A stretch of DNA of 64,000 nucleotides, taken from positions 678,762-742,761 of the forward strand of contig JYNZ01000003.1 of assembly GCA_001567355.1 (NCBI GenBank), written 5' to 3'. Shown here piece by piece: positions 3,794 through 59,827 of this stretch; the stretch's first letter is position 1, and every line of letters begins with the position of its first letter. Source of the stretch: a candidate division WS6 bacterium OLB20 (GTDB lineage Bacteria; Patescibacteriota; Dojkabacteria; B142; OLB20). A program made the translations under genes and the position numbers. The notes beneath the pieces were generated by a model. The model made no database searches. It had not been told where the DNA came from and saw only the letters and a list, made by a program, of their open reading frames with translations.

Positions 3794-4959
3794 TCAGCCT
3801 GCGGCAGCAACGATTACAAGAGTTGTTCTTCCGATTGCGTCTACTGTTTCGTTCTGGCTGATACGGACCGGATCCGCGATCACTTCAGGTACATAGATAG
3901 CAAGCGGACTTGAAAGCTCTGACTGACTGTCCGAGCTGATAGACCGGATTGCATAGTAGTACGTAGTATTGGGGCTGATGCCGGCGTCCTCCATACTAAG
4001 TGTTTCGGCACCAACTCGCTTCACTTCACGGTAGCTTGCGCCCTCATCAGAGCTGCGGTAGAGGATAAAACCGTCAATGCTTTTATCTGTCAGGTTCTTC
4101 CAGGTGATGTGTACTGTCCTGATTACGTCTTCGGGGTTGATCTCAAGGGCCAGAATTGACGGCGGCAGCAGAACATTGCGTGATACGGTGGTGCGCTGTG
4201 CCCCAAGTACATTACTGTCCAGGGATGTTGTAAACGTGCTGTTTCTTGTTGTGGTTTTGTTGCCTGCCGCATCGGTGACCGTTACCTTGTAATGGTACGT
4301 CAGTCCCGGACTCAAGCCGTCAAGCAGGTGTTCATGAAACAGACCCTGCATGTCCACTGTTTCAGTCTCGCCATACCGTGAGGTTTTTCCGTAATCGATA
4401 GTCACTTCCGCGGGTTCGCTCAGTTCCCAGTAAAATTTTACCGACTTGCTGCCGATCTCAAAGATCTCCAGCTGATTAAGTACCGGGTCGGTACTGTCCG
4501 GAACAGTATAGACAAGATCGATAGTGATGTCGCTGAGGGTTACATCTGCATCGGTCTCGAGATCTGATGCCTGCAGCATGATGCCGGCTGCATCACCGCG
4601 CAGCCAGGACTGAACGGTTGCAGTCATATCCTGCAGCTGTTTGGGACCGGCAACACTGAGTGCCTTTGCATCAAGAATGTCCGAGGTCTCCTTGTTCACA
4701 AATCTGAGGATTCCGTTGCTGGTACCCTCCTGAACATAGGTAGCGTTGCTGAACTGATCCGTGCGCTGACGGGAATGGCGAGCACATCAAAGTTGATCTC
4801 TACCAGACTGACATCTCCTGCCTCGCTTCCTGACAGAGCAGCAGTCTGTGGGGATGCTGTGAGTACCTTTGGTGGCGGCACCTCAGACGGCACAGGTGAC
4901 TGAGCCAGCACGCCGGCAGGCAGTAACAGTAATAACAAAGCAGGTAATATCCGGATCAT
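3794..4959 (-). CDS. secreted fibronectin type III (FN3)-repeat protein; signal-peptide exon (4696-4959) and FN3 body (3794-4699) separated by a frameshift in 4699-4786
   Basis: Upstream ORF encodes a signal peptide MIRILPALLLLLLPAGVLAQ. The downstream frame is open through an ~88-nt overlap. Two FN3-like modules (…YHYKVTVTDAAGN…, …YYYAIRSISSD…). Confidence 0.6.
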
Positions 4960-4966
4960 GAGATTA

Positions 4967-5485
4967 TTATACAGGTTGCTCCCGGCGCATGAGCACTTCG
5001 GGGATAACTTTGCCGCCCGGCAGCTCTATCAGATCCTCTTCCAGTTCGCCTATCAGTTCAAACCTGAATTTTGCGTAGTAATCAATTGCCTGCTGGTTGT
5101 AGGCAGCGACATGGACTTCAACAGTGCCCGGACCGATCCATTCCAGCGCCGTCTCCATCAGCCGGCTGCCGATCCCGCCTCCCTGATACTCCGGCAGGAC
5201 ATATGCGGCAAGGATCTGCTGCTTTCCGTCGGCAATCGAGGCAACGATGAATCCGACAACAACGCCGTCGTCGGTTGCAACCCAGGTATGTGTATGATCC
5301 TGGTTTTCAAGATAGGAGCGCTGCTTGGCTATGCCGACCTTTCTGTCCCTGAAGCGTTCGCGGATCAGATCAATGGTGATTCCCAGTCGCTGGTTGGGAT
5401 ACGTGGAAAGCCATGTGGTGGTGCGGACATCAAATATCTGTGCTGCATCTTCAGGCGACGCGTGACGGATTACGATCTCTCGCAT
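4967..5485 (-). CDS. GNAT family N-acetyltransferase
   Basis: Acetyl-CoA binding motif YVLPEYQGGGIGSRLM (R/Q-x-x-G-x-G/A). Confidence 0.8.
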   Translation of the reverse strand: MREIVIRHASPEDAAQIFDVRTTTWLSTYPNQRLGITIDLIRERFRDRKVGIAKQRSYLENQDHTHTWVATDDGVVVGFIVASIADGKQQILAAYVLPEYQGGGIGSRLMETALEWIGPGTVEVHVAAYNQQAIDYYAKFRFELIGELEEDLIELPGGKVIPEVLMRREQPV

Positions 5486-6014
5486 TAGTGGTTATGACTT
5501 CAGTTTCAGTCATAATAACATCCACAGGCTGGTCGTGCGAGTCCGGTGCAAAATCCTCGATCTGCTCACTGAAGCAGAGCCCTATTCGGGTGCTGCGGGG
5601 ATTGATGGCATCAAGAAATCTATCATACCATCCGCCGCCACGGCCGACACGGTATCCGGCGCGCGAAAAGGCCACGCCGGGGAGTATTATCAGGTCGAGT
5701 CGTTCAAGTACTGATGGATCTGCCTCGGCAGGCGGGATTTTAAACGTTCCTGCGCTTGCAAGCTCTTCTACAGACCGTACCTCTCCAACTGCCGGTCTGT
5801 CTACAAACGGCAGCAGCAGGAGCCTCTCAGGGTCGTTAAACAGGGGTCTTGTGTCCACCTCGTGACCGACGGGATAATACAGCAGAACTGTGTGCGCACT
5901 TATATACTCAGGCCGCTGTACAAGTGACTTGATAATCATGCCCGAACGTTCCGTGGCCGTCGACATATCGATCCTGGAAAGGATTTTGTAGCGGAGCAGC
6001 GTTTTTGCCTGCAT
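5451..6014 (-). CDS. 5-formyltetrahydrofolate cyclo-ligase
   Basis: ILPGVAFSRAGYRVGRGGGWYDRFL matches the 5-FCL (MTHFS) signature GxGxGYYDR. 35-nt overlap with the downstream GNAT gene. Confidence 0.7.
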   Translation of the reverse strand: MQAKTLLRYKILSRIDMSTATERSGMIIKSLVQRPEYISAHTVLLYYPVGHEVDTRPLFNDPERLLLLPFVDRPAVGEVRSVEELASAGTFKIPPAEADPSVLERLDLIILPGVAFSRAGYRVGRGGGWYDRFLDAINPRSTRIGLCFSEQIEDFAPDSHDQPVDVIMTETEVITTNARDRNPSRVA

Positions 6015-7202
6015 CTAGCGGAGGTAATCTTTAAGCGCCTGGGCGATCTCGTCGCTTTTCAGGCGTTTGAGTGCTTTAGCCTCGATCTGGCGGATACGTT
6101 CGCGGGTGACCTTGAATTCATGACCCACCTCTTCAAGGGTGCGGGACACGCCATCTTTAAGACCGAATCTGAGCTCAAGTACTTTACGCTCACGGTCGGT
6201 AAGACCGCCGAGAATTTCGGTAATCTGCTTTTTGAGTGATGCCCACGTGGCAATTTCGGACGGGCTGGCTGAAAATTCGTCAGGAATGATGTCTCCCAGC
6301 TTACTGTCTTTTTCTTCGCCGATTGGTGCTTCAAGTGAGGCTGGACGCTGAGCGATGCGGATGATTTCGTTTACCTTTTCGGTATCCATCTCCATCGCGT
6401 CTGCAATCTCCTTGATCTTGGGACGTCTGCCCAGTTTGGCTGCCAGCTGGCTTGATACCTTGCTCAGTTTGTTGATTGTCTCAATCATATGTACCGGTAC
6501 ACGGATTGTACGTGCCTGGTCAGCGATGGCGCGGGTGATAGCCTGGCGGATCCACCAGGTTGCATATGTTGAAAACTTAAAGCCTTTGCGGTATTCAAAC
6601 TTTTCAACTGCGCGCATCAGACCGATGTTGCCTTCCTGGATCAGATCCAGAAGGTCGAGACCGCGTTTGGCGTACTTTTTGGCGATTGATACAACCAGGC
6701 GCAGGTTTGCGGTTGTCAGAAGCTCGCGGGCCTCCTGGTCGCCTTTTTCTATCCGCTTGGCAAGCATAACCTCTTCCTGTGCATTAAGCAGGGGAATGCG
6801 ACCGATCTCATGCAGGTACGCACGAATCGGATCAGTTGAGACATGTGAGCGGATCTTTTTTAAAATACGGACCTTCTGTTCAAACGTCATTCCTTTGCCT
6901 GACGGGTTTGAACGCACCTCAGTTTCTTCTTCGGGGGTTTCATCGGGTTCGATTATCTCGATGTCATCGTCCTGCAGAGTATTAATGATGTATTCAAGCA
7001 GGTTCATGTCTTCCTCGACCTGTGGAAAACGTTCCAGCACCTGGTCCTGAGTCAGGTAACCCTGTCCTTTACCGATATCAACAAGCTCTTTGACGAGTTC
7101 TTTTTTTCTTTTGACTGATGGCCATAGTGGAGTTTCAGATATTAAACGTATTCTGCGTATGTATAATAACGTAGCAGTAGCAATTGTATCATACATATTC
7201 AT
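6015..7202 (-). CDS. rpoD: RNA polymerase sigma factor, sigma-70 family (primary, RpoD-like)
   Basis: Region 2 ([70 protein letters not shown]) and region 4 ([27 protein letters not shown]) are canonical. An acidic region 1.1-like N-terminus is present. Confidence 0.9.
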
Positions 7203-7272
7203 CTTTTATCCGGCTTGAGGCACTGATTGCGGATTTGCTATTATACTAGTAGTTTTTACTGTCCTGCTGCAG

Positions 7273-9072: not shown

Positions 9073-9097
9073 GCGCAGGTCGTTAAGATTTCTGGGC

Positions 9098-13794: not shown

Positions 13795-14063
13795 TTAAGA
13801 AAGGCCAAGTGCCTTTTTAAGCTCTTCAACCGCCTCTTTGCCTTCTTTGTGCTCAAGGTAGGTGAGCAGCCGTCTGCGCTGTCCAACCATTCCAAGCAGA
13901 CCACGGCGTGAGTGGTTGTCTTTTTTGTGCTTCTTAAGGTGGGAGCAAGATCGTCGATCTTTGCCGTCAGGAGTGCAATCTGCACCTGCGGAGAGCCTGT
14001 ATCGCTGTCGCTCGTGCGGAACTTGGCGATAATCTCCTGCTTTTTCTCATTACTGAGAGCCAT
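13795..14063 (-). CDS. rpsO: 30S ribosomal protein S15, interrupted by a 1-nt frameshift near 13938-13952 (CCCACC run)
   Basis: N-terminal frame gives [39 protein letters not shown]. The other frame gives a canonical S15 C-terminus: [48 protein letters not shown]. Span is 269 nt, one base short of 89 aa plus stop. Confidence 0.8.
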
Positions 14064-14563: not shown

Positions 14564-14899
14564 TTATTCCTTGGCTGTTTCGTCGCCTGGCTTTTTGTTC
14601 AGGCGTTCGTTTACGCTGCCTTTAAGATCGCTGATCTTAACGGTGATATCATCACGAACTCTGGAGGCCTGATCGTTGACACGGTTAAGAAACGGCTCAA
14701 CGCGTTCCTCCTGAAAGCTGTCGACAGCTTCGAGGCCCTTTTTAAACATTCTGTCGCTTGCCTGTCTTACTTTGCGGCGGGTTGCCTCACCTTTTTGAGG
14801 TGCAAACAGCAGTCCGGCTGCAGCTCCGGCAGCCGCTCCAAGCAGTGCTCCTGCAATAAAACCTGCAATACCTGCTCCTGAGTTATTATTGTTGCTCAT
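14564..14899 (-). CDS. YtxH-like (DUF948-associated) general stress-type protein
   Basis: Gly/Ala-rich N-terminal helix (GFIAGALLGAAAGAAAGLLFAPQKGEATRRK) typical of YtxH proteins. Confidence 0.5.
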   Translation of the reverse strand: MSNNNNSGAGIAGFIAGALLGAAAGAAAGLLFAPQKGEATRRKVRQASDRMFKKGLEAVDSFQEERVEPFLNRVNDQASRVRDDITVKISDLKGSVNERLNKKPGDETAKE

Positions 14900-14923: not shown

Positions 14924-15280
14924 TTATACTCCCGTCTCTTCATCCACTATGTCGGCAAAGTCGTTTTCTGGTTGAGTTTCGGTTTTGCCACGGGATTTAC
15001 GGAAATTTTTTACAAATCCGAAGATTGATGAAAGCGGTTCGACGACTCCGGTTGTAAAGCCGCTAACAGAGTCGACTACACCTTTCAGGCGTCTGCTGAT
15101 ATAGTCGTAGTCATTAACCAGCCGGTCGCTCAGGTCGCCGAATGCCTGCAGTACCTGACGCAGGTCACGGATACTGTCTGCAAATGCACCAAGCAGTCGC
15201 ATACACTGGTAGGTTAAGCCTAAAATGCTTATACTGAAAACTATTACGAGCAGCAGTTTGGCAAAATCGTCAACGCTCAT
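14924..15280 (-). CDS. DUF948-like membrane-anchored protein
   Basis: N-terminal TM then coiled segment. Commonly paired with YtxH-type genes. Confidence 0.45.
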   Translation of the reverse strand: MSVDDFAKLLLVIVFSISILGLTYQCMRLLGAFADSIRDLRQVLQAFGDLSDRLVNDYDYISRRLKGVVDSVSGFTTGVVEPLSSIFGFVKNFRKSRGKTETQPENDFADIVDEETGV

Positions 15281-24086: not shown

Positions 24087-26860
24087 ATGTCCGAACCGAA
24101 ACGCTATGTAATCAGTTTAAGTCAGATCCAGGGTCAGCCTGGTGAACTCGTCGGCGATCGCATTCTGCTGCTTAATGAGGTAGATAAACTCGGTGTGCCG
24201 ATACCCACGACGTTTGTAATCACATCGCAGGCGTTTGATGACTTTATAGTGGCCGCAGACCTCGTCAGTTACATCTCCGAACGTATCAATAACGTAGATT
24301 ACACAAAACAGCGGCAGATCAAGCAGAACGCAAGAGAGATCCGGGAGGCGATAATGCGCTCGCCGATGCCCGATATCATAGCCCAGCCTATCGAAAAGGC
24401 ATACTCAGGTATGGGGGGAATGTTTGAGTCGTTTGTGAGTATCAAAACCTCGCCACCGCGTCCCGAACTCAACGAAGTGAATTACGGAGATCGTTTTGTG
24501 CTCGATAATATCAAAGGCACACATGATGTGTTTGCTGCCGTCAAGCAGGCGTGGGCAGAACTGTTTACCGAGGAGGCACTGATTTTTCGCGCATCAGTTG
24601 CGTATGAAGGGTCAATCACCATGGCCGTTGCAATCCAGAAGCTTGTACAGGCAGAGGTCTCAGGCCTGGTGCATACCAAAAGTCCTGCCAGTGAGGGCGA
24701 AATGGAAATTCAGGCTGTCCTGGGACTGTTTGAGGGCGTAGATCGTCTGCAGCTTGTACCCGAAAGCTATTTTTACAACCCCAAAGAGGAAGAGATTACC
24801 GATAAGAAACTTGCCCCGCAGCGTCAGATGCTGGTCCGAAAAGGCAGAGCGGATACCGCAAATGCACTTGCAGAAGTCCCGATCTCAAAGAACTGGCAGG
24901 AGCAGCAGAAGCTTGATGACCGTTTTATTGTCAATCTTGGCAGGATCGGCTCATCCTTGAAAAGTCTCTACGGGGCAGATCTGATCATCGAGTTTGCCTA
25001 CGAGGCGGGGCGTGTTTACATTATGTCGATCATCACCGAGGAGGAGTCACTTGCGCAGCGGGCTACGCTGGAGATTGTAAAAGAAGAGGCGCGACCCATT
25101 CAGGAGTTATATCCGGAACGTCCGGATCTTAAAAAAGGACCGAATGATGCAAACCTGGCACGCATTGAGGGGCACCAGGTCGAAGAGGAGGAACAGCGCG
25201 ATCTCAGTAACCTGGCGCTCGTTGTTGATGAGGAGGAGCGTGAGGAAAAACTCAATCTGATAGCCAACGTCGGACCCGACGACTCGCCTGAACAGCAGAA
25301 GGCTGAGCTGGCAAGGCCTGCGGTCGGACCTTCCGAGGCAGAGCAGAAGGTCGAGCTGACCAGGACCAAGGCAGCACCAGAGGATAAACCGGTTGATGTC
25401 CAGATCTCGCGCCCGCACAGTCCGGTTCAGCAGCCAGTGTCCCAGCCGGGGGTTGAGGTGCACGGACAGGAGGTTGTTGTTGATATCAAACCCTTAACAG
25501 TCCTGGAAAAAATTCTCGGTGGTGTCGGATTCGGCAGTACAGTTCAGTTCGGGCTTGTCCACTTTGTTATGGAGGATACTGACTGGCTCGGTCTGACCGG
25601 TGATGAGATCCTGGTTATTAAAAAGCTCGACGAAAAACGGCTGAAGGAGATCAACAGTGTGCGTGCGGTTGTCCTTGAGGAGCCGCTGCGCGAGGAGCAG
25701 CTGCAGCTCATTAAGGTGCCTGTCATCCATGCTGTAAAAAAATGCCCGTGACGTATTGCGCGAAAATGAAGTAGTAACTATCGACGCACAGCACGGTGAG
25801 GTGCTGCTTGGTGCAGGTAAAAAGCCTGATGATGAGGTTAAGGGGGTCGAGCAGACTGAGGAGCAGCCGTCGCTGGTCGATCCGTTCCCGGTAATCTCAG
25901 AGGCTGATATCATCACAAAAGAAAAAAGACGAGCGTGATCCGGTCCAGACAGGCAGCAGTTTCTGGCAGATACTTGATCCGGCAAAACCGTCAGTTGATG
26001 CATCGCAGTCAGAGGGAGTGGTTGTTGATATGAACGACTTTTACCTCCACGCATCAGTCAATCCCGAGTATCTGCTGGGTGAACCCGAACACAAGCGTTC
26101 ATTTATCAAAGAGGTCGTTGCTCATCTCAAACCGCTGCTTGAACTGCTTGAGAACAAAACCGTTCTTCTCAAGGCGCACGATCTTGATTATGAACATCTC
26201 AGCAAGCTGCAGGGTAATCAGAGCATTGACTTTAACACAAGGCACTTGAGCGGAGCAGGCAAGTTTGTTGCCAATCCCAAACTGCTTGAACTTGAACTTG
26301 AGATTCTGGCGATTCTGCGCAACCGCGAATCACTCAGGAACATCTGGCTTGCTGTCCCGAATGTAAACAGTGCAGATGAACTCACCGAGGTAAAAAAGAT
26401 CATCTCCTCATATGGCTTCAGGCGGTCATCAACATTCAAGCTGTATGCCCTGATAACAAGACCGCTCGGAATGCTTTCGCTTAAGACCATTGTTGACCAC
26501 GAGATTGATGCCGTCGGTCTGGATATCGATAGAATACTGGATAACCTCTTTGGCGATGCGGATTATACGATGACAACGGATATTGCCACCTTTCTGGGCT
26601 GGGCTGTACGCACAATCAACTCCAATAAGTCCCGACCTGTTCTTATGAACCGCAAGCACGATATTGATAAGGAAACTCTGCAGCTGATGGTCGAAAAAGG
26701 TCTGACCGAATTTATCGTCCCCCAGAAGGATCTCTACCAGTCACGACTGCTTGTCTCCAGTATTGAGATCACCAAGGTAACAAAAAGAAGAAACGCGGCA
26801 GAAAGAAGAAAGAGATCGACTACGGATTCTGATATAAATAGGTATGCGTTTTCTGTATAA
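24087..26860 (+). CDS. PEP-utilising enzyme family protein (PPDK_N ATP-grasp domain + long acidic low-complexity insert + phospho-His swivel domain + PEP-utilisers C-terminal TIM-barrel-like domain), split into three ORFs by single-base frameshifts at A7 (25736-25742) and A6 (25922-25927)
   Basis: N-terminus matches the pyruvate phosphate dikinase PEP/pyruvate-binding domain (…VAIQKLVQAEVSGLVHT…). The junction reads …VIHAVKK/NARDVLRENEVVTIDAQHGEV across the A-run (compare TSHAAIVARELGIPAVVG…VTVDG). The third piece has an …LAVPNVNSADELTEVKKII… signature like iMIPMV..eE..e.k. Confidence 0.55.
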
Positions 26861-39555: not shown

Positions 39556-41652
39556 ATGACAGCAAGACTATTCATCGATAACGGAATAGACTTTGAGTAT
39601 ATGATTCTGCTTGCAGGAGGACTTATTCTGCTGCTCATTATTCTGAATGTACTTGTTCTGCTGAGACGCTATCTGCACACAAGGGGCAGAACGCTGACTC
39701 CCGTTTTCCTCCGTTCTGTCAGGCAGGCGTTCAAGAACATCCTTCGCAGAGCAGTGCCGGCAGTCGTCCGCAGGCGCAGAAGCGGAATTTTGCGCGGTAC
39801 GGTCGTTGTGATAAACAGTTTTGCTGCTGCTGTTCTGATGGTTGCCCTGTTTGATCTGTTTCAGGGGCCGGGCATACGAGGTCACTATCCGGCAGTTGAA
39901 GGAAAGCTGCAGAATTATGAAGAACCGATCACAATTGAGTTTGACCGTGCGGTTGATACCACTGAATTCCAGCCCTATATCTTCCCCGAGATTGATGGTG
40001 AATGGCGGGCCGAGCCCGAATATGACTGGATGCCGGGGATCAAGCGCAAGGTGGCGTTTTATCCGAAAGAGTCGATGTTTCCGGGTAAGGTGTTTATCTA
40101 CTATGCAGAGGTTACTGACAGTCTGAAACTTCAGGAGAAGTGGGAATACGGTATCAATGCCTACAGTGTTCCGGTGCCGGCAGTCAGCAGTGTCTCCCCT
40201 GAAAAGGGTTCTGAAGATGTCGGTGTTGACCGCGAGCTGCAGTTTTATCTGGATAACGAGACCGGCGACTTTATCGAATGGAGCTTTGAAATTTCGCCCG
40301 ATGTATCAACCCAGCTGTACCAGTCTGATGCAAAGACAATTAACGTGCGGTTTGAGTCACTGCTGGCACAGAATACTGAGTACTCCTACAAGCTACGCAG
40401 AACTCCGGTCCGGTACCGTCTGGATAGCGGAGAGGTGATAGACCGTGGAGAAACATCCGTCGCCACAGAAGGATCATTTAAAACCGTTAAGGAACCGCTG
40501 CTTGAATCGATCCACCCGAGCGGTGAGGGTGTTTACATTACTGATTCGATCAAGGTTGTTTTTGATCAGGAGATGGAGCAGCAGTCGGCACAGGAGGCGT
40601 TCCGTATCGCGCCTGAGGTTGCAGGTACGTTTTCATGGGAAGACAGCAGGACGATGATTTATGACCCCGGGCAGAACCTCGCAAAGGAAACAAAGTATAC
40701 CGTAACCTTAAAACAGGGGATTCGCAGTCTTAAGGGTGGTTTTACCGGCAAGGATGTAACGCATGAGTTTACAACGATCGGGGCGGTCACAGCAGGATTT
40801 TCACCGGGCGGCAGCAGTGTGGATACGGCTGCCAACATCTCTGTCTATTTCAATCAGCCGGTTGATAAGGCCAGTGCCGAGTCAAAGTTTTCGATATCGC
40901 CGTCGGTACCCGGTTCAATCTCCTGGAACGGTAACACACTGACATTTAATCCATCCTCTGATCTTGCGTTTTCAACCGTCTATACTGTCAGGGTTGATGC
41001 AGGTGTAAAAAGCATTAACGGCATCGACTCGCGCACGCAGTTCAGCAGGTCGTTTACAACCGAGGCACAGGTGTTCCGTCTTAATGTGCCGGTGTATTAT
41101 CAGAGCCTGAGGTTCTCCTGCAATCTGGTTGCCGCGCGGATGGCTCTGGCTTATCGAGGGATTTCTGTCTCGACACTTGGTGCTCATTCGCAGATAGCAA
41201 AAGACAACACACCATGGAATCCGGATGCGAATACATGGGGCAATCCGCATGCGGGTTATGTGGGCGATATCTATGGCAACCAGGAGGGATACGGTGTCTA
41301 CTGGGGACCGCTGTCCAGCTGGATGTCTGGATACAGATCCAACGCTGTCAGAGTAGGCTGGAGCAGAACGCAGATGCTGCAGGCTGTGCAGGCGGGTAAC
41401 CCCGTGATCATCTGGGCACATAACGGTTACTCAGGCTCAGGTGCAAACAGGTCGTGGACGACGCCTGGCGGCACAAATATTTACGCGATCCAGGGAATGC
41501 ATTCCTATGTGGTTGTAGGCTGGGTTGGACCGATCGACAATCCCTCACAGATTATCCTTAATGACCCCAACCGTGGTCGCTGGACGATCTCTACAGGCTA
41601 CTTCGACGCACTCTGGTCATACTTCGGCAGAGCATCGGTCGTTGTCTACTGA
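39556..41652 (+). CDS. membrane-anchored protein with bacterial Ig-like (SbsA-type) repeats and a C-terminal peptidase C39-like domain
   Basis: N-terminal TM helices. Repeated ~90-aa Ig-like segments (…VSSVSPEKGSEDV…, …IHPSGEGVY…, …FSPGGSSVDTAANISVYF…). C-terminal VPVYYQSLRFSCNLVAARMALAYRG…NPVIIWA…MHSYVVVGW…DPN (Cys/His of the C39-like fold). Confidence 0.6.
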   Translation: MTARLFIDNGIDFEYMILLAGGLILLLIILNVLVLLRRYLHTRGRTLTPVFLRSVRQAFKNILRRAVPAVVRRRRSGILRGTVVVINSFAAAVLMVALFDLFQGPGIRGHYPAVEGKLQNYEEPITIEFDRAVDTTEFQPYIFPEIDGEWRAEPEYDWMPGIKRKVAFYPKESMFPGKVFIYYAEVTDSLKLQEKWEYGINAYSVPVPAVSSVSPEKGSEDVGVDRELQFYLDNETGDFIEWSFEISPDVSTQLYQSDAKTINVRFESLLAQNTEYSYKLRRTPVRYRLDSGEVIDRGETSVATEGSFKTVKEPLLESIHPSGEGVYITDSIKVVFDQEMEQQSAQEAFRIAPEVAGTFSWEDSRTMIYDPGQNLAKETKYTVTLKQGIRSLKGGFTGKDVTHEFTTIGAVTAGFSPGGSSVDTAANISVYFNQPVDKASAESKFSISPSVPGSISWNGNTLTFNPSSDLAFSTVYTVRVDAGVKSINGIDSRTQFSRSFTTEAQVFRLNVPVYYQSLRFSCNLVAARMALAYRGISVSTLGAHSQIAKDNTPWNPDANTWGNPHAGYVGDIYGNQEGYGVYWGPLSSWMSGYRSNAVRVGWSRTQMLQAVQAGNPVIIWAHNGYSGSGANRSWTTPGGTNIYAIQGMHSYVVVGWVGPIDNPSQIILNDPNRGRWTISTGYFDALWSYFGRASVVVY

Positions 41653-42716: not shown

Positions 42717-43845
42717 TCTCGCCCTTCGCGTTTGTGGTCAGGTTGATAACCTGTGGCGCTGACGGTCGCTGCATCAGATAAAGAACGAGCGCTGCAAGCA
42801 TGGTAATCAGACTGGCAAACATCAGGCCGAATCCAAGCGGCTGATTTGTGTTTACACTGATATCGGCATCTGCAGCAGACTGCGGAGCAAGGGCAGGCGC
42901 AAAAGGCAGTGTAAACAGATCTTCTGATATTTCGCCGTCCTCGCCGGAGTAGGTCATTGTCACATTGTAGTCACGTGCCGACAGGGTTGAGGTGTCAACA
43001 TCAATCATCCAGAAACCCGCGGCGTCCGGTACTGTTGTATATACAACAGCATCATCGGTATCAAGTGCGATGGTGAGCAGACTGCTTACGCTGCTGCGAC
43101 CGCTTAAAATAAGTACCTCGGGCACGGTCTTCGGGACTGAGGCCGGAGGATAGATCAGTCCGTCAACCTCAACAAACTCATAAAATGCCTGACGCGCTGC
43201 ACCTGTCAATAATCCCTGGATTGTAACCTGCACTGGTACGGACCGTCCTGACTCTCCTGCGGTATTTACTGCGCTCACTTCATAGGTCGGCGTAGTGCCA
43301 GCTGCCCGACCTGTGTCGGTAAAAAATGGAAACCGTGTCTCGGCAACCAATTCACTATCTCTGTAAACCCTGTAAGTGGTCACCCCATCCTGCGGCAGCC
43401 AGTTCAGATCAGTAAAACCCTCACCGACAAAGCTCTGCGTCAGACCTGCGGGGGCCACGGGTGCAGCCTCGCCGCTTACAGCTATGGTCAGGGCGCTGCG
43501 TTTCAGACCGCTTTCCTGCCAGACTGCGTAAAGTATCCGGGATTGCTCCGCGGTAAATGACAGTGCGACCGGTTGATTTTCAATCTCTGCTGAACGAATG
43601 GTCCCGTCTGCGCTTTCCACAACAACACCGCAGCACCAGACCTCGGAACTCCCGCGGGTAAGTTCCAGAGTAACCTCGTCACCTTTTGCAACGGTAAACG
43701 AATCAGGTGAAAATGAACCCGCGCGCTGAGATATATCACCTGTCGACACAGTTACCTGTAACAGTTGCTCCTCAGCCGAAACGGCGGACGGCACTGAAAA
43801 CAGCGCCGCAAAAGTCATGATTGTAGCCAGAATGTACTTACTCAT
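42703..43845 (-). CDS. secreted/cell-surface protein with FN3-like domain and C-terminal TM anchor
   Basis: Signal peptide MSKYILATIMTFAALFSVPSAVSA. FN3-like …GVTTYRVYRDSELVAETRFPFFTDTGRAAGTTPTYEVSAVNTAGESG. C-terminal hydrophobic segment. Confidence 0.5.
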   Translation of the reverse strand: MSKYILATIMTFAALFSVPSAVSAEEQLLQVTVSTGDISQRAGSFSPDSFTVAKGDEVTLELTRGSSEVWCCGVVVESADGTIRSAEIENQPVALSFTAEQSRILYAVWQESGLKRSALTIAVSGEAAPVAPAGLTQSFVGEGFTDLNWLPQDGVTTYRVYRDSELVAETRFPFFTDTGRAAGTTPTYEVSAVNTAGESGRSVPVQVTIQGLLTGAARQAFYEFVEVDGLIYPPASVPKTVPEVLILSGRSSVSSLLTIALDTDDAVVYTTVPDAAGFWMIDVDTSTLSARDYNVTMTYSGEDGEISEDLFTLPFAPALAPQSAADADISVNTNQPLGFGLMFASLITMLAALVLYLMQRPSAPQVINLTTNAKGEITTG

Positions 43846-43894
43846 AGGGCAGAGTTGTACTAGTATAGTATGTAATTATTATTGGTGTGACAAT

Positions 43895-44524
43895 ATGCGT
43901 GTGACGAGGAATGAGACACTTCTCAGACAGCTGACATCAAACAAAGTTATCTGGCTGCTGACACTGTCAGACATTTTTACCTGGGGAAGCTACTACATCA
44001 TCAGTACCATTGCCGGTATATATCTTGCGGGCAGGCTCGGTGTCAATGCTGTCGAAATCATCGGGATCGGTACTGCAGTCTACTTCGTATGCAGGGCTGT
44101 GTTTCAGATCCCGGTAGGTATTATTACCGACAGGCTGGAACGAGACCGTGATGAGGTCCTTATCCTTGCGATCGGGAGCATTCTCATGGGAATGTCGTTT
44201 GTGATGTATCCGCTCATTGACAGGCCGATTTCGTATTTCTTCCTGCAGTTTCTGTTTGGACTTGGTACTGCAATGAATTTGAATACCTGGCGCAAGCTGT
44301 TTGCTAAAAACCTGCAGAAGAACAACGAGGGCAAAGAGTACGGTATGTATGAAGTATTCATGAGTATGGCGATAGCCGCATTCAGCTGGGTCGCAGGTCT
44401 GGTTGCCGGTGCAGGGGGTATTTACTTTGATCTTGTTATGATAGCCGTTGGTATTACCATGATGCTCAGCTTCGGATGGGCGCTTCTGATTCTTACTATC
44501 CGTGACAGAAAGTCGCAGGACTAG
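43895..44524 (+). CDS. small 6-TM MFS-like membrane protein (half-size)
   Basis: GIITDRLERDRDEV resembles the MFS loop motif G-x-x-x-D-R-x-G-R-R. ~6 hydrophobic helices. Confidence 0.35.
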   Translation: MRVTRNETLLRQLTSNKVIWLLTLSDIFTWGSYYIISTIAGIYLAGRLGVNAVEIIGIGTAVYFVCRAVFQIPVGIITDRLERDRDEVLILAIGSILMGMSFVMYPLIDRPISYFFLQFLFGLGTAMNLNTWRKLFAKNLQKNNEGKEYGMYEVFMSMAIAAFSWVAGLVAGAGGIYFDLVMIAVGITMMLSFGWALLILTIRDRKSQD

Positions 44525-44594: not shown

Positions 44595-46343
44595 ATGAAA
44601 GGACGCCGAATCTTCACAACGCTGCTTGTTTTTATGCTGCTTGGTCTCTCTGCTGCAGCTATTTTCATTGGTGTACAGTTGCAGCAGACAGGTGACACAA
44701 CCCCCGATGATACTTCGGCTGCCTGTGTTCCCGGAACAATGATCTGCAATGGTGACAGTCTGGGTACTGTCTGCGGTCAGGGGGGATCCGACTGGGGTAT
44801 TGTCTGCGGAAGTAACGGACAGTGGGACCGGAACACCTGTACCAAGCGTGATGCGTGTGCACGGCGTGACCTCTATACCGGGCGTTCCTGCGCTGATCTT
44901 GTCCGGTTCAGCTGCGGAGAAAACGGCCGGGGAGAATTTGTCGGCTGTAACACCTCAGGGCAGAACTGCTTCTGCCGCAGAACCGATGTCAACTATACAC
45001 CCCAGACTGGAGCATGTAACGTAAGCTGCTGCGCCCGCCAGGGTAATAATCCGGGCGGTAATACCGGATACAGTGGTATCACCGTCACCTGCCTTGACGA
45101 AATCCTTGACGGTCTGGGTCGGGCTGACTCCTGCGGAGCGCGCGTCACCAGTGGCGGCTCAACGCCAACCCCGACTCCGGGAACCTGCAGCTGTTCACAG
45201 GGTTACAATTACTGCGGTGTGGCAATCCCCCCGGGACAGACTTACTGCGGGTACCAGGTCTGCGGACGTGACGGCAGAATGTATACCTGTAATTCAAGCG
45301 GGTGGACTGCAGGCGGAACCTGTTCGATGCAGTGCGACAATCCCACGCCGACCTATACGCCGCCGGTCACAACTCCACCATCTTACAGCTGTCCCAGACA
45401 TCCGAACACTCAGTTCTGGGTCGGATGCCGTGGTGAGCCATACTCAGGCTGCGGTGGACTCAGTGGCTGGATCAGTGGAAGTGATGTGACAAGACGCAAC
45501 CCGAGACCGCAGTTCTATCTGGATATCAACTGCTTTGCAGAGCAGAACGGACGTATTGACGGAGCATACACAAACGCCTACGTAGAGCTGCGCCGTAACG
45601 GTCAGCTGGTGCGGACATTCAACGACTGGAACGTCCGTGATTATCTGATAACTGACTACGGCAGTTATTCTGCACGCTGCATTGACAGATCAGACGCATC
45701 GTGCGGTGATACCGACGGTTTCGCGATCAATGCACCGCCACCGACAACCATTCCGCCGTCACCGTCACCCACATTTACGCCGACGAACACGCCGACAAAT
45801 ACGCCGACAAATACACCGACCAATACGCCAACCAACACACCGACGGCTACCAGTACACCAACGGCAACGCCTACACCTACAAACACACCGACAAATACGT
45901 ACACACCGACACCGACTCCATCTGTTACAACAACCATTGTGGAGACGGTCACCCCGACACCAACGCCGTCACCGACGACTCCTCCCGGATTCCTCGAGTG
46001 TTATGAGACAGGATGCGACAGTGCACCATGTGTCATCGGGCTTGTGTGTCAGAACAACCGCTGCGTGAATCCGCAATACCCTGACAGTCCTGTATGTAAG
46101 CCAGGTGTCGTGACAACAATCCCGCCGACCGCCCTGATCAGTGACACTGCTGACCGTATTCTGCTTGGTACCATACTGCTGATAGCAGCAATCTGGGGGT
46201 ACATTGCCGGTGCATACCAGACGGTCGGCAATGCTGTCTGGTTGAATGTTTTACGGCCCGGGCTTGCAAAGGCCGTACCGTCATACGGCCAGAAGCAGTA
46301 TGAGCAGGAGGCCTCGGAGCGCCTGAAACCTGAAGACGACTAG
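44595..46343 (+). CDS. Cys-rich surface protein with Pro/Thr-repeat stalk and C-terminal TM anchor
   Basis: N-terminal signal-anchor …[16 protein letters not shown]… and >40 Cys in the first 380 aa. (PTNT)n stalk. Hydrophobic C-terminal segment [18 protein letters not shown]. Confidence 0.6.
45777..45850 (+). repeat. 12-nt tandem repeat (CCGACAAATACG)n encoding PTNT linker
   Basis: ~6 direct copies with minor variation, inside CDS 44595-46343. Confidence 0.7.
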
Positions 46344-46348: not shown

Positions 46349-47311
46349 ATGGAAAACCGACGAACCCTCATAATTGCCTTGTTTCTCGCAACCGCAGTTC
46401 TTGGCGCGTTGTCAATCTTTCTTGGAGTTCAGCTTCAGCAGAATCAGAACACTACACCGGATCCGGCTGCTGCTGCGTGTCCGATCGGTAAAGTCCGCTG
46501 CAGGACTGATAACCCCGGCATCTGTCCCGGACTGCATCCCAGTGACGGAAACCCAGCGATTGATGCGATGGTGGGTCAGCTATGCGGTGACGGTGTCAAC
46601 TGGGGTGGCTGCACCTATTTTGACGCATGTGCTCCTCAGGTCAGTGATGACGTTACCGCCTGTGCAGGTGATTATCCCGCTGTGTCAACGCGGATTATCA
46701 GGTTGAGCAGCGGTGAGCCAGACCGCGGGTCATTTGTTGGATGTGACTATTCAATTCAGCCGGGGGTGGGATACAATTGCTTCTGTCCGGAAAATGTCAG
46801 TGTCCGACAGCCGTTCACTGTGGGAACTGTCAACTGTTTTGAGGACCGCAACAGCGATTCATGTAATGCCCGTGAGATGACCCCTACTGTAACAAATACA
46901 CCAACCAGTACGCCCACAAATACGCCTACTAGCACGCCCACAAATACCCCAACCAGTACGCCGACCAATACTCCAACCAGCACGCCGACAAGTACACCCT
47001 CAGCAACACCAAGTGCTACCGCCTCCCCGACGCTGACACCAACCGCATCACCATCGGCAACGGTGACACCGACAAATACGCCAACACCAACAAACACAGC
47101 GACGCCGACTCCAACACCGTCGGTGACCACTACAACAGTAGAGACGTTTACACCGACGCCGACTCCTTCTGTTACGGTTACGCTGCCGCCAACCGCTATC
47201 GGTGACGGACCGCAGGGTATACTGGCTGGACTGCTGCTGCTGGGACTGGGACTGTGGCTGTATATCTCAGGCGGTGCAGATATTGTTCTCAGGCGCGCAC
47301 GGGGTTATTGA
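46349..47311 (+). CDS. paralogous Cys-rich Pro/Thr-repeat surface protein with sorting-signal-like C-terminus (LPPTAIGDG + hydrophobic segment + RRARGY)
   Basis: Shares the N-terminal …[17 protein letters not shown]…AAACP… and the C-terminal …[11 protein letters not shown](I/T)VET(V/F)TPTPTPS… with the upstream gene. Confidence 0.6.
46897..46998 (+). repeat. 30-nt tandem repeat encoding ([10 protein letters not shown])n linker
   Basis: ~3.5 direct copies, inside CDS 46349-47311. Confidence 0.7.
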
Positions 47312-54010: not shown

Positions 54011-56193
54011 ATGTACCAGACCAGAATAAGCCTAAAAAAACGACGTATCAGCAGCGGATCAGGCAGATCAGTCAGATCGGGCCGTGCTCTGCGCGTCCGG
54101 CGCAGAATGCGCAGACGTGAAGTCAGAAACAGTGTTTTTGCCGGTTTCAGCGTGACTGCGGTTGCCGGCTTTTGCATGTCGCTTGTGGCTGGTCTGTTTC
54201 TGCTGTCGTTTCTTCAGGTCGTGTCCCAGGATCTGCCCACGCCCGAAAAACCTTTTGGAAAAAAAGCTACAACAAGCGAAATCTACGACCGAAACGGCAA
54301 TATCCTGTATCGGGTTTTTGACGATGAGGACAGAGATCCTGTCCGGTTAAACGAGGTCCCGCCGCTCGTCAAGTGGGCATTCATTGCGGCCGAAGATGCG
54401 ACATTTTATGAGCATCACGGCATAGACCCCGCAGCAATGGCTCGCTGTGCGCTCAGGATGCTGGATGGAGACGACAACATCTGCGGTGGTTCAACCATTA
54501 CGCAGCAGCTGATCAAAAAGACTGCACTGACAGACGAGGTAAATATGGAGCGTAAGCTGAAAGAGATCATCCTGGCGCTTAAGATCGAGCAGGACCGTTC
54601 AAAAGATGAGATTCTCGAGATGTATCTGACAGTTGTGCCCGAAGGCAGCAATATTTATGGCATAACCCGGGGATCTCAATTTTACTTCGGCAAGGATCTG
54701 GACGAGCTGTCACTTGCCGAGATCTCAATCCTTGCTTCAATCCCGCAGAATCCAAGCAGGCTGTCCCCGACAAAATCACTTGTTCCGGAGAAAGCGCAGG
54801 CCCTGCTGCGTGAGAGGCAGCTCTACGTTCTTGATCAGATCGAAAAAAACATGGATCGCATCAACAGTGCCGCCTACCAGGATACTGGTTCTGATAAGCC
54901 GCTGGTGACTGCGGAGATGATCGAAGAGGCGAGAGGTGAAAAACTGGTCTTTAAACAGCCGCGCTTTGAGATCAATGCACCACATTTTGTCTTTTACGCT
55001 CAGCAGCTGCTGCAGGAGCGCGGATACAATAATGGCAAGCCCTTTGATCTGTCGGAGATTGAGACAGAAGGTCTGCGGATCTACACCACACTTGATATGG
55101 AGCATCAGCGTGTGGCTGAGGATCAGGTGCGTAAAGCCGTCGACAGATACGGCACACGCTATGGAGCAGATAACGCCGCAATGGTATCACTGGATCCGGA
55201 CACCGGAGAAGTGCTTGCCTATGTCGGATCATACAACTACTTCGGTGAGGCAAAGCCGGCCGGGTGCCGTCTGGGGCAGACATGCACCTTTGAGCCACAG
55301 GTCAGTGTTCCGGGCACCCTGCAGTCATACGGATCTACTCTGAAACCGATAATCTACTATAAAGCATTTATGGACGGGCTGATTGAGGCCGACAGCGTCA
55401 TTCCCGATGTGCCCATCCAGATCGGCTCCTATAAACCCAAAATTACGAGGGCAGGTTTTACGGACTCAAAAGCGCCCGCTGGATGCTGATCAACTCGCGC
55501 AACATTCCGGCAATAATGCTGACTGACCAGATCGGAACACAAAATGTTGTTGCAGAACTGCAGAAATGGGGTTACACAACATTTGATGATCCAAACCGCT
55601 TTGGGCCTGCAATCTCGGTTGGCGGCGGTGACGTGAGGCTGATCGAACATGCTCAGGCGTATGCTGTGTTTGCCAGCGGCGGGATGTACAATCGGCATGA
55701 GGTTATCAGCAGAATTGAAGATGTTGATGGCAATGTGTTGTACGAATACAAGCCCCAGCCACAGCAGATAGCAGACCCTCGCGGGATCTACCTGGTTAAC
55801 GATATTCTTAACGGCAAAAAGGGTGGTGTCGGATATAGCTTTGACGGACGCGATATTGCCGGAAAAACCGGAACATCAGAGAAACAGACCGAAACACTCT
55901 TTGTGACGTATACACCTGAAATCGTTGCAATCGGATGGCTCGGCAATAATACAAACAAGGGTATGGTCTATGGTGCAACAGGCTATACGTCTGCCAGGCC
56001 ATGGGTCTCGGAGTACGTCCAGCGCATGGGAGACAAAATTCCTGCCACCGCATTTAAACGTCCTGAAGGTGTCTACTATAACAGTAAGGGCCACCTTGCA
56101 ATCCGGGGCATCGCAGCACCGCTAAAAGTGAGCGTCCCCCGTCAGTACCGGCCGGGCGATGTCTTAAGTCTCGACAGCCACTACGCACGCTGA
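54011..56193 (+). CDS. class A penicillin-binding protein (transglycosylase + transpeptidase; PBP1A-type), split by a 1-nt frameshift at 55436-55442 (CCCAAAA)
   Basis: GT51 motifs (AAEDATFYEHHGID, GGSTITQQL). Transpeptidase SxxK (GSTLKP), SxN (reads ...PQNYEGRFYGLKSARWMLINSRNIPAI across the shift), KTG (IAGKTGTSE). Confidence 0.85.
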
Positions 56194-56250: not shown

Positions 56251-58817
56251 ATGCCTCTGATCCTGATCGTTTGTTCGACAATCCTTATTCTAGGTGCTGC
56301 CGCTGTCTTAGCCGGCAGATACTTTTATCTTCGCAGCAGTATTAACGAGGAGCTGCTTGAGCAGGTAGTGCTTCTGATCTCGGTACCGACAAAAAACGAC
56401 AAGACTCCTCTGGCTGCTGAACAGCTGTTTCAGTCGCTGCACGGTATCCTCCGCGAATCTGGCAAGGCATCAAGTCAGTACTCGTTTGAAATTATTGCCA
56501 CTCAGTCGGGCATCTTTTTTATTGCAGTGTGCCCGAGGCGTTACCGCGAGTTTTTAGAAAATCAGATTTACTCGCAGTATCCCCAGGCCCAGATCAGGCA
56601 GATTCAGGATTATGCCGCTGCACAAAAACATACAAGCATGCCATACGCCGCATCAGAGCTTGGACTTGGCCGGGAGTTCTATCTGCCGATCAAAACATTT
56701 ACAAACTTCACCGTTGATCCTCTTGCATCAATTACCGGTGCTGTTTCAAAACTCTCTCCTGGTTACGAAGCATGGATACAATTGATTGCGCGCCTATCGG
56801 TAACAGCTGGCAGGACCGCGGCAAAAAATTTGTTAACCACATGAAGGCAAGAACAGACTCGGAGGGTAAAAAAATCCAGCTCGAGTCAGGAGAAAGTGCT
56901 GAGTTGCGCGAGGTTGAAACAAAAAACTCCAAGGTCGGATTTCAGTTTGTCGTCCGGCTGATGGTACTTGGACCTGATAAATTAATTGCTCAGCAGATCC
57001 TCGAGGACATTGAGGCATCGTATAAGCAGTTTCAGACCGGTCAGTTTAATTCTCTGGTCAAAAAAAAGGAGAAAAAGGGGATGCTGCGTCCGGTCATGCG
57101 CCTATTATTCGGACGCAGACGAACAGAACGGCTTGATCTGCGGTCCAAATACAAGCTGCGGTTTCTCGATGAGAGAAGTGACGATGTGATTAATACAGAG
57201 GAGCTTGCGTCACTCTACCATCTGCCGAACGAAACAGTGGAAACCCCAAATATAGTCTGGGCGAAGTCCAGAAAACTCGAATTTCCGAAAAATCTGCCAT
57301 TTAACCAGGGCCGTATTTTTGCAAAAACTGACTACAGAAACCTTGAAGTGCCCTTTGGCATTAGGGATATGGATCGCAGACGCCACATGTATATTCTCGG
57401 AAAAACAGGCAGCGGTAAATCAACCCTGCTTAAGAACATGATTATCGCTGATATCCGTGAAGGCAAGGGACTGGCTGTAATTGATCCTCATGGAGATCTT
57501 GTGGAGGACGTCCTCAGATATACACCGCTCGAGCGCGCAAATGACATTGTCTACCTGGATCCGTCCGATATGATGTTTCCGATTGGTATCAACATGCTTG
57601 ATCTTAAGGAGTCCGAAACTATCGAGCTCCTGTCTGACGGAATTGTTTCGGTTTTTAAGCGGTATTTTGACTCCTGGGGTCCGAGGCTGCAATACATACT
57701 TACAAACACAATTCTCACGCTGCTGCATTGTCAGAACGTATCACTGCTGGCTGTCCAGCGTATTCTGGTTGACGAAAACTACCGCACGTTTCTGCTGAAA
57801 CAGGTTAAAGATCCGTTTCTTGTCCAGTTCTGGGAGAAAGAGTTTGCCGACATGGCCAAAAACCCCAGAATGCTGACCGAGGCGATTGCTCCGATCCAGA
57901 ATAAAGTAGGACGCTTTCTTAACTCGCCCATGGTCAGAAACATGGTCGGACAGGTCAAGTCCCGGGTTGACCTGGAGGATATCATGAACAGCGGTAAGGT
58001 GCTGCTGGTCAATCTATCCCAGGGTAAGATCGGTGAGGAAAACTCGTCTCTCCTTGGAGGAATGCTGGTGACCCGTCTTTACACAAACGCGATGCAGCGT
58101 GCACGTATGGCTGAGTCAGAGCGGCGCGACTTTTACGTCTATGTTGATGAGTTCCAGAACTTTGCTACTGATTCGTTTGCAAAGATCCTGTCAGAGGCAC
58201 GCAAGTACGCACTTAACCTTGTAGTGACGCACCAGTATGTTGATCAGATTTCAGAAGAGCTGCAATCTGCAATATTCGGTAATGTCGGCACCATGCTCAA
58301 TTTTGTGGTCGGTCAGGCTGATGCTGCAAGGCTTGCAAAGGAGTTTGAGCCGTATCTTGACAGCGAGGATCTGGTTAATCTGGAACGCCACGCGCTGTCG
58401 ATAAAACTTATGGTTGACGGTACGCAAAGTGTACCGTTTACAGCAAAGTCACTTGCACCGTTTCATCTGGAGCTCGGTTTTCAGGAGCAGATCAAAGAGG
58501 CATCACGTTCTAACTACGCCACTGAACGTGCTGTTATTGAGGAGAAACTCAATAAATGGTCACTGCAGCGATACAACAGTAAGGGTAACCTTATTCAGGA
58601 CGGTGGTCGCGAACAGAACGACAGACCTGCTAAAAAACAAGATGACACTAAGCAGAACGCAGGCAAGGCTTCGGAAGACGATCCCCGTAGTGAAGAAACC
58701 CCTTCCACCGGGAAGAAGCCCAGGGCAGATAAGTCGCCAGAACCGGAGAAGCCCGGACAGAACAAGAATACGAAACCCGTAAACGATGAGTCCAGCGGGA
58801 GTGCCGTTGAACCCTAG
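56251..58817 (+). CDS. membrane-anchored P-loop ATPase of the VirD4/TraD/TrwB-HerA (FtsK-HerA superfamily) type, with K/E/D/P-rich disordered C-terminal tail; N-terminal TM module and ATPase separated by a 1-nt frameshift at A6 run 56823-56828
   Basis: Walker A HMYILGKTGSGKSTLL. Walker B FYVYVDEFQNFA. C-terminal ARKYALNLVVTHQYVDQIS…GNVGTMLNFVV matches the coupling-protein/HerA arginine-finger region. Reading through the A-run gives …AAKKFVNHMKARTD…. Confidence 0.55.
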
Positions 58818-58891
58818 CGTGCGAGTTCTTTTCTGACCGGTTTTTCTGGTGTACAATACGCCTGTATCAGATTAGCTGTTAACCCGTTTCT

Positions 58892-59827
58892 ATGTCAGAC
58901 TTAAAAGTGTTTGCCCATCTTAACCCCGATACAGACTCAACGGTAGCGCCGATTGCATATGCCTGGTTTCTTAATGATTTCCTTGAGATTCCTGCTGCAG
59001 CGTTTTGTGACTGGAGATCTGAATAAAGAGACAGCATTTTGTGCTGGAGCATTTTTGGAGTAGATGTTCCGGATACTATTCTCGAGCTTGAAGAAGGTGA
59101 TGAAGTTGTCATCCTTGATACAAACAACCCTGAGGAGCTTCCGAAAGGGATCGATAAGGCAGATATCGTCGAGATCATTGATCATCATAAGCTTGTTGGT
59201 GGTCTCTCAACAGAGAGTCCGCTGTCTGTGACAATGCGTCCTCTTGGCAGTACATCAACAATAGTCTGGCAGCTGATTGACGAGTACGAAGAGGTTGAGG
59301 TTCCTGCTGACATGGCAGGACTTATGCTTGCCGGCATACTGAGTGATACGCTTAACTTCACCAGCCCGACAACTACAGAGGATGACAAGGAAGCTGCTGC
59401 TGAGCTTGCAGAAATTGCAGGAAAAGATATTAACAGTCTGGCAGACAAAATGTTCGCAGCAAAATCAGACCTTTCGGGAATGGATACTGCCGCAATCCTG
59501 ACGATGGACAGCAAGGTGTTTGATCTCGGTGGCAAGGTACGGGTCTCTGTCCTTGAGACAACTGACCCTCAAGTGGCAAAAGATATGACTGATGATCTCA
59601 AGACCGGCATGGAGAAGATGACAGCTGATGAGGGTCTTGATCATATGTTCTTCTTTATCGTTGACATACTTAACAGTGAGGCCTTTCTGCTTGCCTCGTC
59701 AGATGAGGCCCGTGCAGCTGCAGAAAAAGCCTTTGAAGGGACATTTGAAGGAGACTATTTGCGTCTGCCTGGTGTTGTATCCCGTAAGAAGCAGATGATC
59801 CCTGCACTCGAGGGCGTACTTAAGTAA
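58892..59827 (+). CDS. ppaC: manganese-dependent inorganic pyrophosphatase (family II, DHH-DHHA2), with two compensating 1-nt indels in T-runs (59003-59006 and 59052-59056)
   Basis: MSDLKVFAHLNPDTDSTVAPIAYAW… (DHH motif I). …VEIIDHHKL… (DHH). …GLMLAGILSDTLNFTSPTTT…, C-terminal DHHA2 …GVVSRKKQMIPALEGVL. A short segment (VTGDLNKETAFCAGAF) reads in another frame. Confidence 0.8.

Follow-up and report, generated by a model that had tools for sequence, protein, structure and literature searches.

In genomes that are truly decaying, such as those of Mycobacterium leprae and of recent insect symbionts, the lesions include nonsense codons, deletions and insertion elements, several lesions are found per gene, and core genes are spared. 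Frame changes are also known inside functional genes: the +1 frameshift of prfB and the -1 frameshift of dnaX occur at orthologue-conserved sites with slippery or stimulatory elements, and slippage rescue in endosymbionts takes place at long A/T tracts. Frameshifts may further be of technical origin. The Ion Torrent Personal Genome Machine (PGM) over-calls short homopolymers and produces high-frequency indels at about one per 1-2 kb of reference, which are mostly single-base, "most commonly insertions of A/T or deletions of C/G", often located in runs of 2-3 nucleotides (nt), and a cause of frameshifts in assemblies (Bragg et al. 2013, PMC3623719, a study cited by the authors of the genome considered here). 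We analysed a 64,000-nt stretch of contig JYNZ01000003.1 (hereafter the window, to whose positions all coordinates refer) from the WS6/Dojkabacteria bacterium OLB20, in which eight of about 55 genes are broken by 13 single-base insertions or deletions (indels). These 13 indels are very probably sequencing or assembly artefacts, and hence an ordinary data-quality problem, rather than gene decay or a biological feature.

Single-base indels and the platform behind the record

A reading made from the letters of the window alone (the sequence-only reading) had proposed at least ten single-base frameshifts that split otherwise intact genes. Three-frame reading of the ten intervals it listed, together with homologue comparison, identified 13 single-base indels in eight genes, five of them insertions and eight deletions. 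Nine of the ten intervals held a true site, and the one assigned to a VirD4-like gene was wrong. The frame breaks as such were genuine: all eight genes are broken, each becomes one intact gene through single-base edits, and each of the 13 breaks is mended by one base added or removed beside an identical base. That both insertions and deletions occur, and that the genes for ribosomal protein S15, the penicillin-binding protein (PBP) PBP1A and pyrophosphatase are affected, was likewise borne out, while the pairing of genes with coordinates had been scrambled for rpsO, ppaC and the gene of a protein with FN3 domains, whose actual positions are given below. Nonsense codons, larger deletions and insertion elements were absent among the 13 lesions, and no adjacent fragments formed a same-frame pair with an intervening stop in place of a frame change.

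The sequence context of the indels was uneven. Seven of the 13 lay in a named run of 3-7 nt, although for one of these (the second site of a phosphoenolpyruvate (PEP)-utilising enzyme gene) the run is placed solely by the bounds of the open reading frames (ORFs). Two, in the S8 peptidase genes, are unplaceable within intervals holding C3 or G3 runs, one, in the PBP gene, affects either C3 or A4, and the remaining three fall in runs of at most 2 nt; the earlier description of almost all sites as lying in 3-7-nt homopolymers was therefore roughly right, if overstated. Runs of at least 3 nt make up 14% of the window and runs of at least 4 nt make up 5%. All five insertions lengthen runs whose repaired length is at least 3 nt, an outcome with a probability of about 0.046 for one random insertion and about 2e-7 for five in succession. 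The runs affected by deletions were shorter (C3, C2, G2 or C1, A5, and C3 or A4).

The affected genes are a mixture of long genes and core genes (those for S15, PBP1A and pyrophosphatase), and the targets of the indels are blind to function. The relatives examined all have these genes as single ORFs. For all six repaired products that were tested externally, the match to single-ORF orthologues, solved structures or Pfam profiles continues through the breaks, and those of the FN3, PEP, ppaC and VirD4-like genes align end to end with orthologues at 54-68% identity; the two repaired S8-lectin paralogues align only to each other.

The gene fragments are exact matches to GenBank entries KXK27057-KXK27093, on a 744,746-bp contig of the metagenome-assembled genome (MAG) OLB20, which was assembled with CLC and SPAdes solely from Ion Torrent PGM 400-bp reads, and for which the authors noted "persistent frameshifts, common in IonTorrent data" (Speth et al. 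2016, PMC4821891). Such frameshifts have accordingly been acknowledged already in general terms, and the signature of flow-based or long-read error recognised in the sequence-only reading finds its counterpart in a source platform that is flow-based. From the supplementary counts of the same paper, the WS6-1 bin comprised 2,268-25,795 reads per library, in all about 85,000 reads of about 300 bp for 1.4 Mb, corresponding to a depth of about 18x in total and of at most about 5.5x in any single library; these depths take OLB20 to be WS6-1, as we infer from the contig size, and would be shallower still for WS6-2. The MAG consensus was pooled from six runs of the Olburgen anammox reactor.

Contigs of the 2015 era offer a direct view of single runs. 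Two Logan contigs, tentatively assigned to PRJNA274364 from their accession era and organism, together hold three +1 indels in 2,464 bp and otherwise match the window, each indel adding a frameshift that has no counterpart in the MAG. In the contig of SRR1797700 (1,249 bp), G6 of the window becomes G7 and TCG-TTT-GTG becomes TCG-TTTT-GTG, and in that of SRR1797697 (1,215 bp), T4 becomes T5. The change from T3 to T4 before GTG in SRR1797700 occurs in a context that recurs at two of the ppaC sites described below, and the SRR1797697 contig carries the same break in S8 gene 1 as the MAG.

In the proposed explanation, consensus errors of the Ion Torrent PGM, both miscalled homopolymer lengths and high-frequency indels, would have survived in a MAG of about 18x depth from the Olburgen bacterium, while in the organism itself the genes for S15, PBP1A, pyrophosphatase and the other products would be intact. 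The gene caller would have split the genes because the deposited sequence holds one base too many or too few per site. We infer that each of the 13 sites is itself an error.

The eight broken genes

The ppaC gene for a family II (DHH) inorganic pyrophosphatase (58892-59827, plus strand) is annotated as a 44-amino-acid (aa) ORF plus the 262-aa KXK27093. Here, the sequence-only reading had postulated two compensating T-run indels, whereas the homologues call for three extra T, all on the plus strand: indel 11 at 59003-59006 (GCG TTTT GTG should be GCG TTT GTG), indel 12 at 59037-59040 (GCA TTTT GTG should be GCA TTT GTG), which had gone unlisted, and indel 13 at 59052-59056 (CAT TTTTT GGA should be CAT TTTT GGA). 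With the three T removed, the gene reads "AAFVTGDLNKETAFVLEHFGVDVP", collinear with 12 homologues, and yields FVTGDLNKETAFVLEHFGVDVP. The version with two indels needs a gap and loses the motif F-[VIL]-L-x-x-F, which is common to all 12 homologues (P0027 has the identical FVLEHF) and is regained only by removing the T of indel 12. The repaired protein has 310 aa, covers Pfam DHH positions 4-125 of 125 plus DHHA2, and aligns end to end with P0012, the best of the 12 homologues, at 66% identity. The three T over-calls lie within 54 nt, and stop codons are present in the intermediate frames, so that a compensated allele is impossible. Such local clustering fits technical error, and three independent mutations in one otherwise pristine gene would be very unlikely.

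The gene for a VirD4/TrwB-like DUF8128 ATPase (56251-58817, plus strand), annotated as a 197-aa plus a 658-aa ORF, has more than 100 relatives that are single proteins of about 800 aa and cover 95-100% of the repaired query. Its break had been assigned to the A6 run at 56823-56828. In tblastn comparisons, eight homologues (55-68% identity) switch frame 30 nt upstream instead, at the CC of 56793-56794, where one C is missing from a true CCC (indel 10, plus strand); the frame +1 high-scoring segment pair (HSP) ends at 56793 for six of the eight, the frame +3 HSP starts there for three of the eight, and the frame change at 56793 gives "LIARPIGNSWQ". The repaired product is 68% identical to P0132.

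Another two core genes are broken by one deletion each. The rpsO gene for ribosomal protein S15 (13795-14063, minus strand), annotated as the frameshifted 95-aa KXK27057, lacks one C of a coding-strand CCC (GGG on the plus strand) at 13941-13943 (indel 3, minus strand), as determined by three-frame reading, repair and alignment with PDB chains that is ungapped at the site. The repaired product of 89 aa matches Pfam Ribosomal_S15 over positions 1-79 of 81 in one stretch (102 bits), and its residues 1-88 align with solved S15 chains, with an ungapped junction and one 1-residue gap about 30 residues downstream. The class A PBP gene (54011-56193, plus strand), annotated as KXK27088 plus KXK27089, lacks one nt in CCCAAAA at 55436-55442 (indel 9, plus strand). 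After repair, Pfam Transpeptidase forms a single stretch (390-635) across the junction, and solved PBPs align gap-free over ...SYKPKNYEGRFYG...; from the sequence comparison, a change of A4 to A5, which would give PKN as in PBP1a 3udf, is slightly favoured over one of C3 to C4.

Two breaks were found in the gene for a secreted protein with a signal peptide, FN3 domains and a C-terminal membrane anchor (3666-4959, minus strand). Indel 2 (4739-4741, minus strand) is one missing nt (on the plus strand, GG to GGG or T to TT): the sequence-only reading had correctly seen a break at 4699-4786, which the orthologues narrow to these three positions, although the run is of only 1-2 nt and not a longer homopolymer. 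The frame -3 HSP ends at 4741 for three of five orthologues (P0334, P0374 and P0414), and the frame -2 HSP starts at 4741 (P0334), 4738 (P0370, P0374 and P0414) or 4732 (P0454). Indel 1 (3797-3799, minus strand) is one nt missing in coding-strand GGC (G3 to G2, or C2 to C1). At this site, the frame -2 ORF stops at ...VIVAAAG and the anchor and tail of the orthologue carry on in frame -1; repair regains the membrane anchor and the tail TRNILRDPEYYSEEF, identical to the C-terminus of P0334. With both insertions made, the product of 431 aa and its orthologue P0334, which is a single ORF of 434 aa, can be aligned from end to end at 60% identity.

Three breaks split the gene for a PEP-utilising (PPDK_N) enzyme (24087-26832, plus strand), annotated as KXK27067, a 60-aa ORF and KXK27069. 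Indel 4 (25736-25742, plus strand) is one extra A, with A7 observed for a true A6; the upstream-frame orthologue HSP ends at 25736 and the next-frame HSP starts at 25741-25744, and the Pfam PEP-utilizers match across the junction is weak. Indel 5 (25895-25938, plus strand) is one extra nt, most likely in the A6 at 25922-25927. It is confined to 44 nt by stop codons of both frames, the next-frame orthologue HSP resumes at 25937-25943, and only the ORF bounds locate the site because it lies in a variable linker. Indel 6 (26782-26786, plus strand) is one missing A, with A5 observed for a true A6: KKKRGRKKKEIDYGF, read in a shifted frame, forms an HSP with the C-terminal ends of P0251 and P0252, the repaired C-terminus is KKKKRGRKKKEIDYGF, and the repaired tail is collinear with both. 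The warning of the sequence-only reading that other genes may carry undetected errors was justified, in that homologues exposed indel 6 and indel 1, two further C-terminal breaks that it had missed. The repaired enzyme of 914 aa shows 54-55% identity, in an alignment that runs from end to end, to the Dojkabacteria orthologue P0251, a single ORF of 909 aa.

The PEP enzyme comprises a PPDK_N domain, a long acidic linker and a weak mobile-domain match, followed by about 300 aa that belong to no Pfam family. Its only relatives with the full architecture among about 15 billion proteins, the collection to which the protein searches reported below also refer, were P0251 and P0252, and it looks like a Dojkabacteria-specific enzyme of unassigned activity.

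The two genes for S8 peptidases with H-type-lectin repeats follow directly. Gene 1 (26844-30547, plus strand; annotated as KXK27070 plus KXK27071) lacks one nt at 28937-28976 (indel 7, plus strand), an interval bounded by ORF overlap; the candidates are CCC at 28948-28950 or the TCTGC directly after it, and the paralogue alignment puts the site between ...INA and CDYGSG. The repaired product has 1234 aa, of which residues 22-1223 align with repaired paralogue 2, junction included. Gene 2 (30547-34094, plus strand; KXK27072), which as annotated is without its last lectin repeat, lacks one nt at 33885-33945 (indel 8, plus strand), again within ORF-overlap bounds and with GGG 33886-33888, CCC 33896-33898 and CCC 33912-33914 as candidates. 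Its repaired product of 1182 aa regains the final repeat FGSAPVIFYEVNSENGG..., matching the end of paralogue 1. Between the repaired paralogues, the alignment extends through both junctions for about 1,200 residues, with 36.5% identity. As a tandem of secreted proteins (26844-34094) of about 1,200 aa each, in which about six H-type-lectin-like repeats come after a subtilisin-like S8 peptidase, the pair has an architecture that is unusual for a bacterium of the candidate phyla radiation (CPR).

Later sequencing runs and rival explanations

Several observations weigh against an artefact, or against its simplest form. Logan contigs from two later Sequence Read Archive runs, SRR29904086 and SRR29904084, are 100.000% identical to the window without gaps over positions 1-6108 and 10776-64000, and they reproduce all 13 indels and every homopolymer. 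If these runs are independent accurate reads, the frameshifts are real. An intact near-identical allele was absent among the proteins searched. Within the window, only two of the 60 runs of at least 6 nt are affected and 58 are untouched, and several sites lie in runs of 1-3 nt, not in long homopolymers; clean long runs and sites of 1-3 nt fit simple homopolymer error less well than errors of the high-frequency-indel type. The base bias lies in the direction expected of that type, all five insertions being A/T and three of the four to five nameable deletions being C/G in runs of 2-3 nt; the test, on small numbers, is weak (Fisher p of 0.048-0.083), and with p at about 0.05-0.08 the bias is no more than suggestive.

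The longest homopolymers, A8 at 57060-57067 and T8 at 61620-61627, showed no frame problem; A8 lies inside the VirD4-like gene, and homologue HSPs run through it without a break. Clean runs of this length are noteworthy in data from Ion Torrent, and the authors' correction step may account for them. More generally, clean long runs would be expected if the authors' corrector fixed obvious homopolymers and left errors in short runs.

The later contigs measure 59,899 bp in SRR29904086, 12.5 and 3.8 kb in SRR29904084, and are short in SRR29904083, for which identity applies to gene products rather than DNA. Since a 60-kb k-mer contig is impossible from a library of at most 5.5x, SRR29904083/84/86 must be a later, deeper and different dataset. 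The contigs of two of these runs break at the same places (6082-6108, about 10690 and about 14462), and their ends correspond to ultra-conserved motifs, namely sigma-70 (rpoD) region 4, the ftsZ GGGTGTG and the thioredoxin (trx) WCGPC; the shared breaks are probably graph branches at k-mers common to other community members, and contig ends of this kind suggest a complex sample, not a lack of depth. In the literature, the platform and BioProject of SRR29904083/84/86 were not found. The proteins closest to the OLB20 pyrophosphatase and VirD4-like proteins reach about 66-67% identity, and because nothing closer exists elsewhere in the searched collection, the organism has otherwise been seen only in the original project. 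The later runs are presumably not independent; their reads could, for example, have been generated from or filtered against the deposited assembly. That they are both accurate and independent, in which case a CPR bacterium would have kept frameshifts over years in about one seventh of its genes including those for S15, PBP1A and pyrophosphatase, we regard as a small chance.

Real mutation of any kind appears unlikely. Many CPR bacteria lack mismatch repair, and a decaying lineage where replication slippage had recently knocked out about one gene in seven (8 of about 55) would also favour homopolymers, would account for the presence of every indel in independently assembled contigs of three later runs, and has a possible parallel in a Dojkabacteria relative whose prs gene is split in its MAG and in two Logan runs. 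Yet all 13 lesions are 1-nt indels, with neither nonsense nor deletion lesions among them, the genes are otherwise pristine and of full length relative to their orthologues, core genes are hit, and three insertions fall within 54 nt of ppaC. Moreover, the platform makes exactly such errors, as its users stated, and decay would need 64 kb of an 18x Ion Torrent assembly to contain no errors while 13 pure-indel knock-outs mimicked the known errors of that platform. Slippage-driven decay is therefore improbable.

Two further readings were considered, and both are less credible still than decay, itself improbable. If the frameshifts were real and bypassed by programmed ribosomal frameshifting or transcriptional slippage, as known from poly(A) tracts of some endosymbionts, full-length proteins would still be made; the reproducibility in the later runs applies equally to this case, and +1 slippage is conceivable on the A or T runs of the five insertion sites. 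The orthologues of ppaC, VirD4-like, PEP and FN3 genes are single unshifted ORFs, so nothing is conserved and conserved programmed frameshifting is excluded. Transcriptional slippage becomes efficient only in tracts of about 8-9 nt or more, whereas the runs here are of 2-7 nt, some sites (GCGCGCC-TATC and GCT CCC ACC, for example) are not slippery, and ppaC would need three successive bypass events. Population heterogeneity is just as hard to credit. Homopolymer tracts are well known as contingency loci, surface or secreted proteins are encoded by three of the affected genes (two S8-lectin and the FN3 gene), and with phase variation or mixed alleles the assemblies could have picked the out-of-frame allele. 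Phase-variable tracts are usually 7-8 nt or more and lie in surface or restriction genes; the tracts found here are far shorter, with only one 7-nt run, and housekeeping genes (rpsO, ppaC and the PBP gene) are affected as well. The MAG and three later assemblies share the allele at all 13 sites, and the in-frame allele occurred in none of the databases searched. Sequencing or assembly error thus remains the best explanation of the 13 indels.

Neighbouring features, the database record and known frameshifts

Several other candidates were considered and rejected. A trio of ORFs in successive frames at 59949-61440 (minus strand) resembled two frameshifts, yet it reads as separate small genes with their own starts, of which the gene caller makes two, and evidence for a break was lacking. 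A half-size MFS_1 transporter at 43817-44524 (209-235 aa, about six helices) has no second half in any frame. Nonsense lesions were suspected between 36637-39549 and 39556-41652, between 14564-14899 and 14924-15280, and between the PBP and VirD4-like genes; these are independent genes with their own starts.

A scan of contigs with VirD4-like peptides found only Gracilibacteria and Peribacteria at 28-37% identity and did not return OLB20 itself, so that it was of no use for localising the break; the MAG seems to be missing among the GTDB species representatives, perhaps because it failed quality filters. In the closest relative (loci L020-L022 of P0132), synteny is not conserved, and these loci yielded no PBP or ppaC orthologue DNA. 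That closest Dojkabacteria relative (GCA_046753765.1; Logan SRR29324593/94) has its PRPP synthetase as 199-aa and 94-aa ORFs overlapping by 4 nt (L020 12415-13295, L021 9810-10690 and L022 4354-5234), possibly another frameshift, in a genome from a different project.

Further features of the window and its surroundings were noted. The rpmH gene for L34 (2064-2249, minus strand) carries a 17-aa C-terminal extension into the start of rnpA, which may be natural or another missed indel near the stop. Two adjacent genes at 44595-46343 and 46349-47311 encode paralogous proteins that are rich in Cys, carry long Pro/Thr repeats and have a C-terminal anchor; the second is uncalled in the Logan contigs, where the opposite strand has a 124-aa ORF called in its place. 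Just outside the window, about 2.5-0.9 kb upstream of its first position (L006 3897-5511), a small cluster of genes of the Tox-REase-9, DUF4304 and CdiI-like types resembles a polymorphic toxin/immunity module.

The value of these results is one of data hygiene, as a warning about the OLB20 record. Through GenBank, UniProt and clustered protein databases, the MAG contributes truncated and chimeric "proteins", such as a 95-aa S15 with a nonsense tail, a pyrophosphatase truncated at its N-terminus, and a PBP1A and a PEP enzyme that are each split. A density of about one indel per 5 kb would mean that about 250 breaks may be present in all 1.4 Mb of the genome, and pseudogene counts, estimates of completeness, metabolic reconstructions and family alignments that use this MAG are unsafe. 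Breaks that affect a C-terminal tail only, of which two were found, are invisible without orthologues. Should the later runs nevertheless prove independent and accurate, the case would be biologically remarkable, as one of very rapid decay or pervasive recoding.

Comparison with the known systems places the window as follows. Like the pseudogenes of reductive genomes, OLB20 shows many genes in adjacent fragments, to which homopolymer indels contribute; unlike them, it has lesions of one kind only, 1-nt indels, and these affect S15, PBP1A and pyrophosphatase. With the frameshifts of prfB and dnaX and the slippage of endosymbionts it shares a frame change inside a functional gene, sometimes at a homopolymer, but the OLB20 sites have unshifted orthologues, and such elements or long tracts were not seen at them, no search aimed at stimulatory structures having been made. 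From the errors described for the PGM it differs in two respects, as high-frequency indels are mostly run-specific and long runs mainly under-called on that platform (PMC3623719), whereas the OLB20 indels persist in a six-run consensus, are mirrored in later runs, and include over-calls at the A7 and A6 sites. In the remaining respects, PGM errors (PMC3623719) and the OLB20 window are alike: both show single-base indels on the order of one per few kb on the same platform, which leave frameshifted assemblies, and the PGM preference for A/T insertions and C/G deletions, frequently at 2-3-nt runs, has a suggestive counterpart in OLB20.

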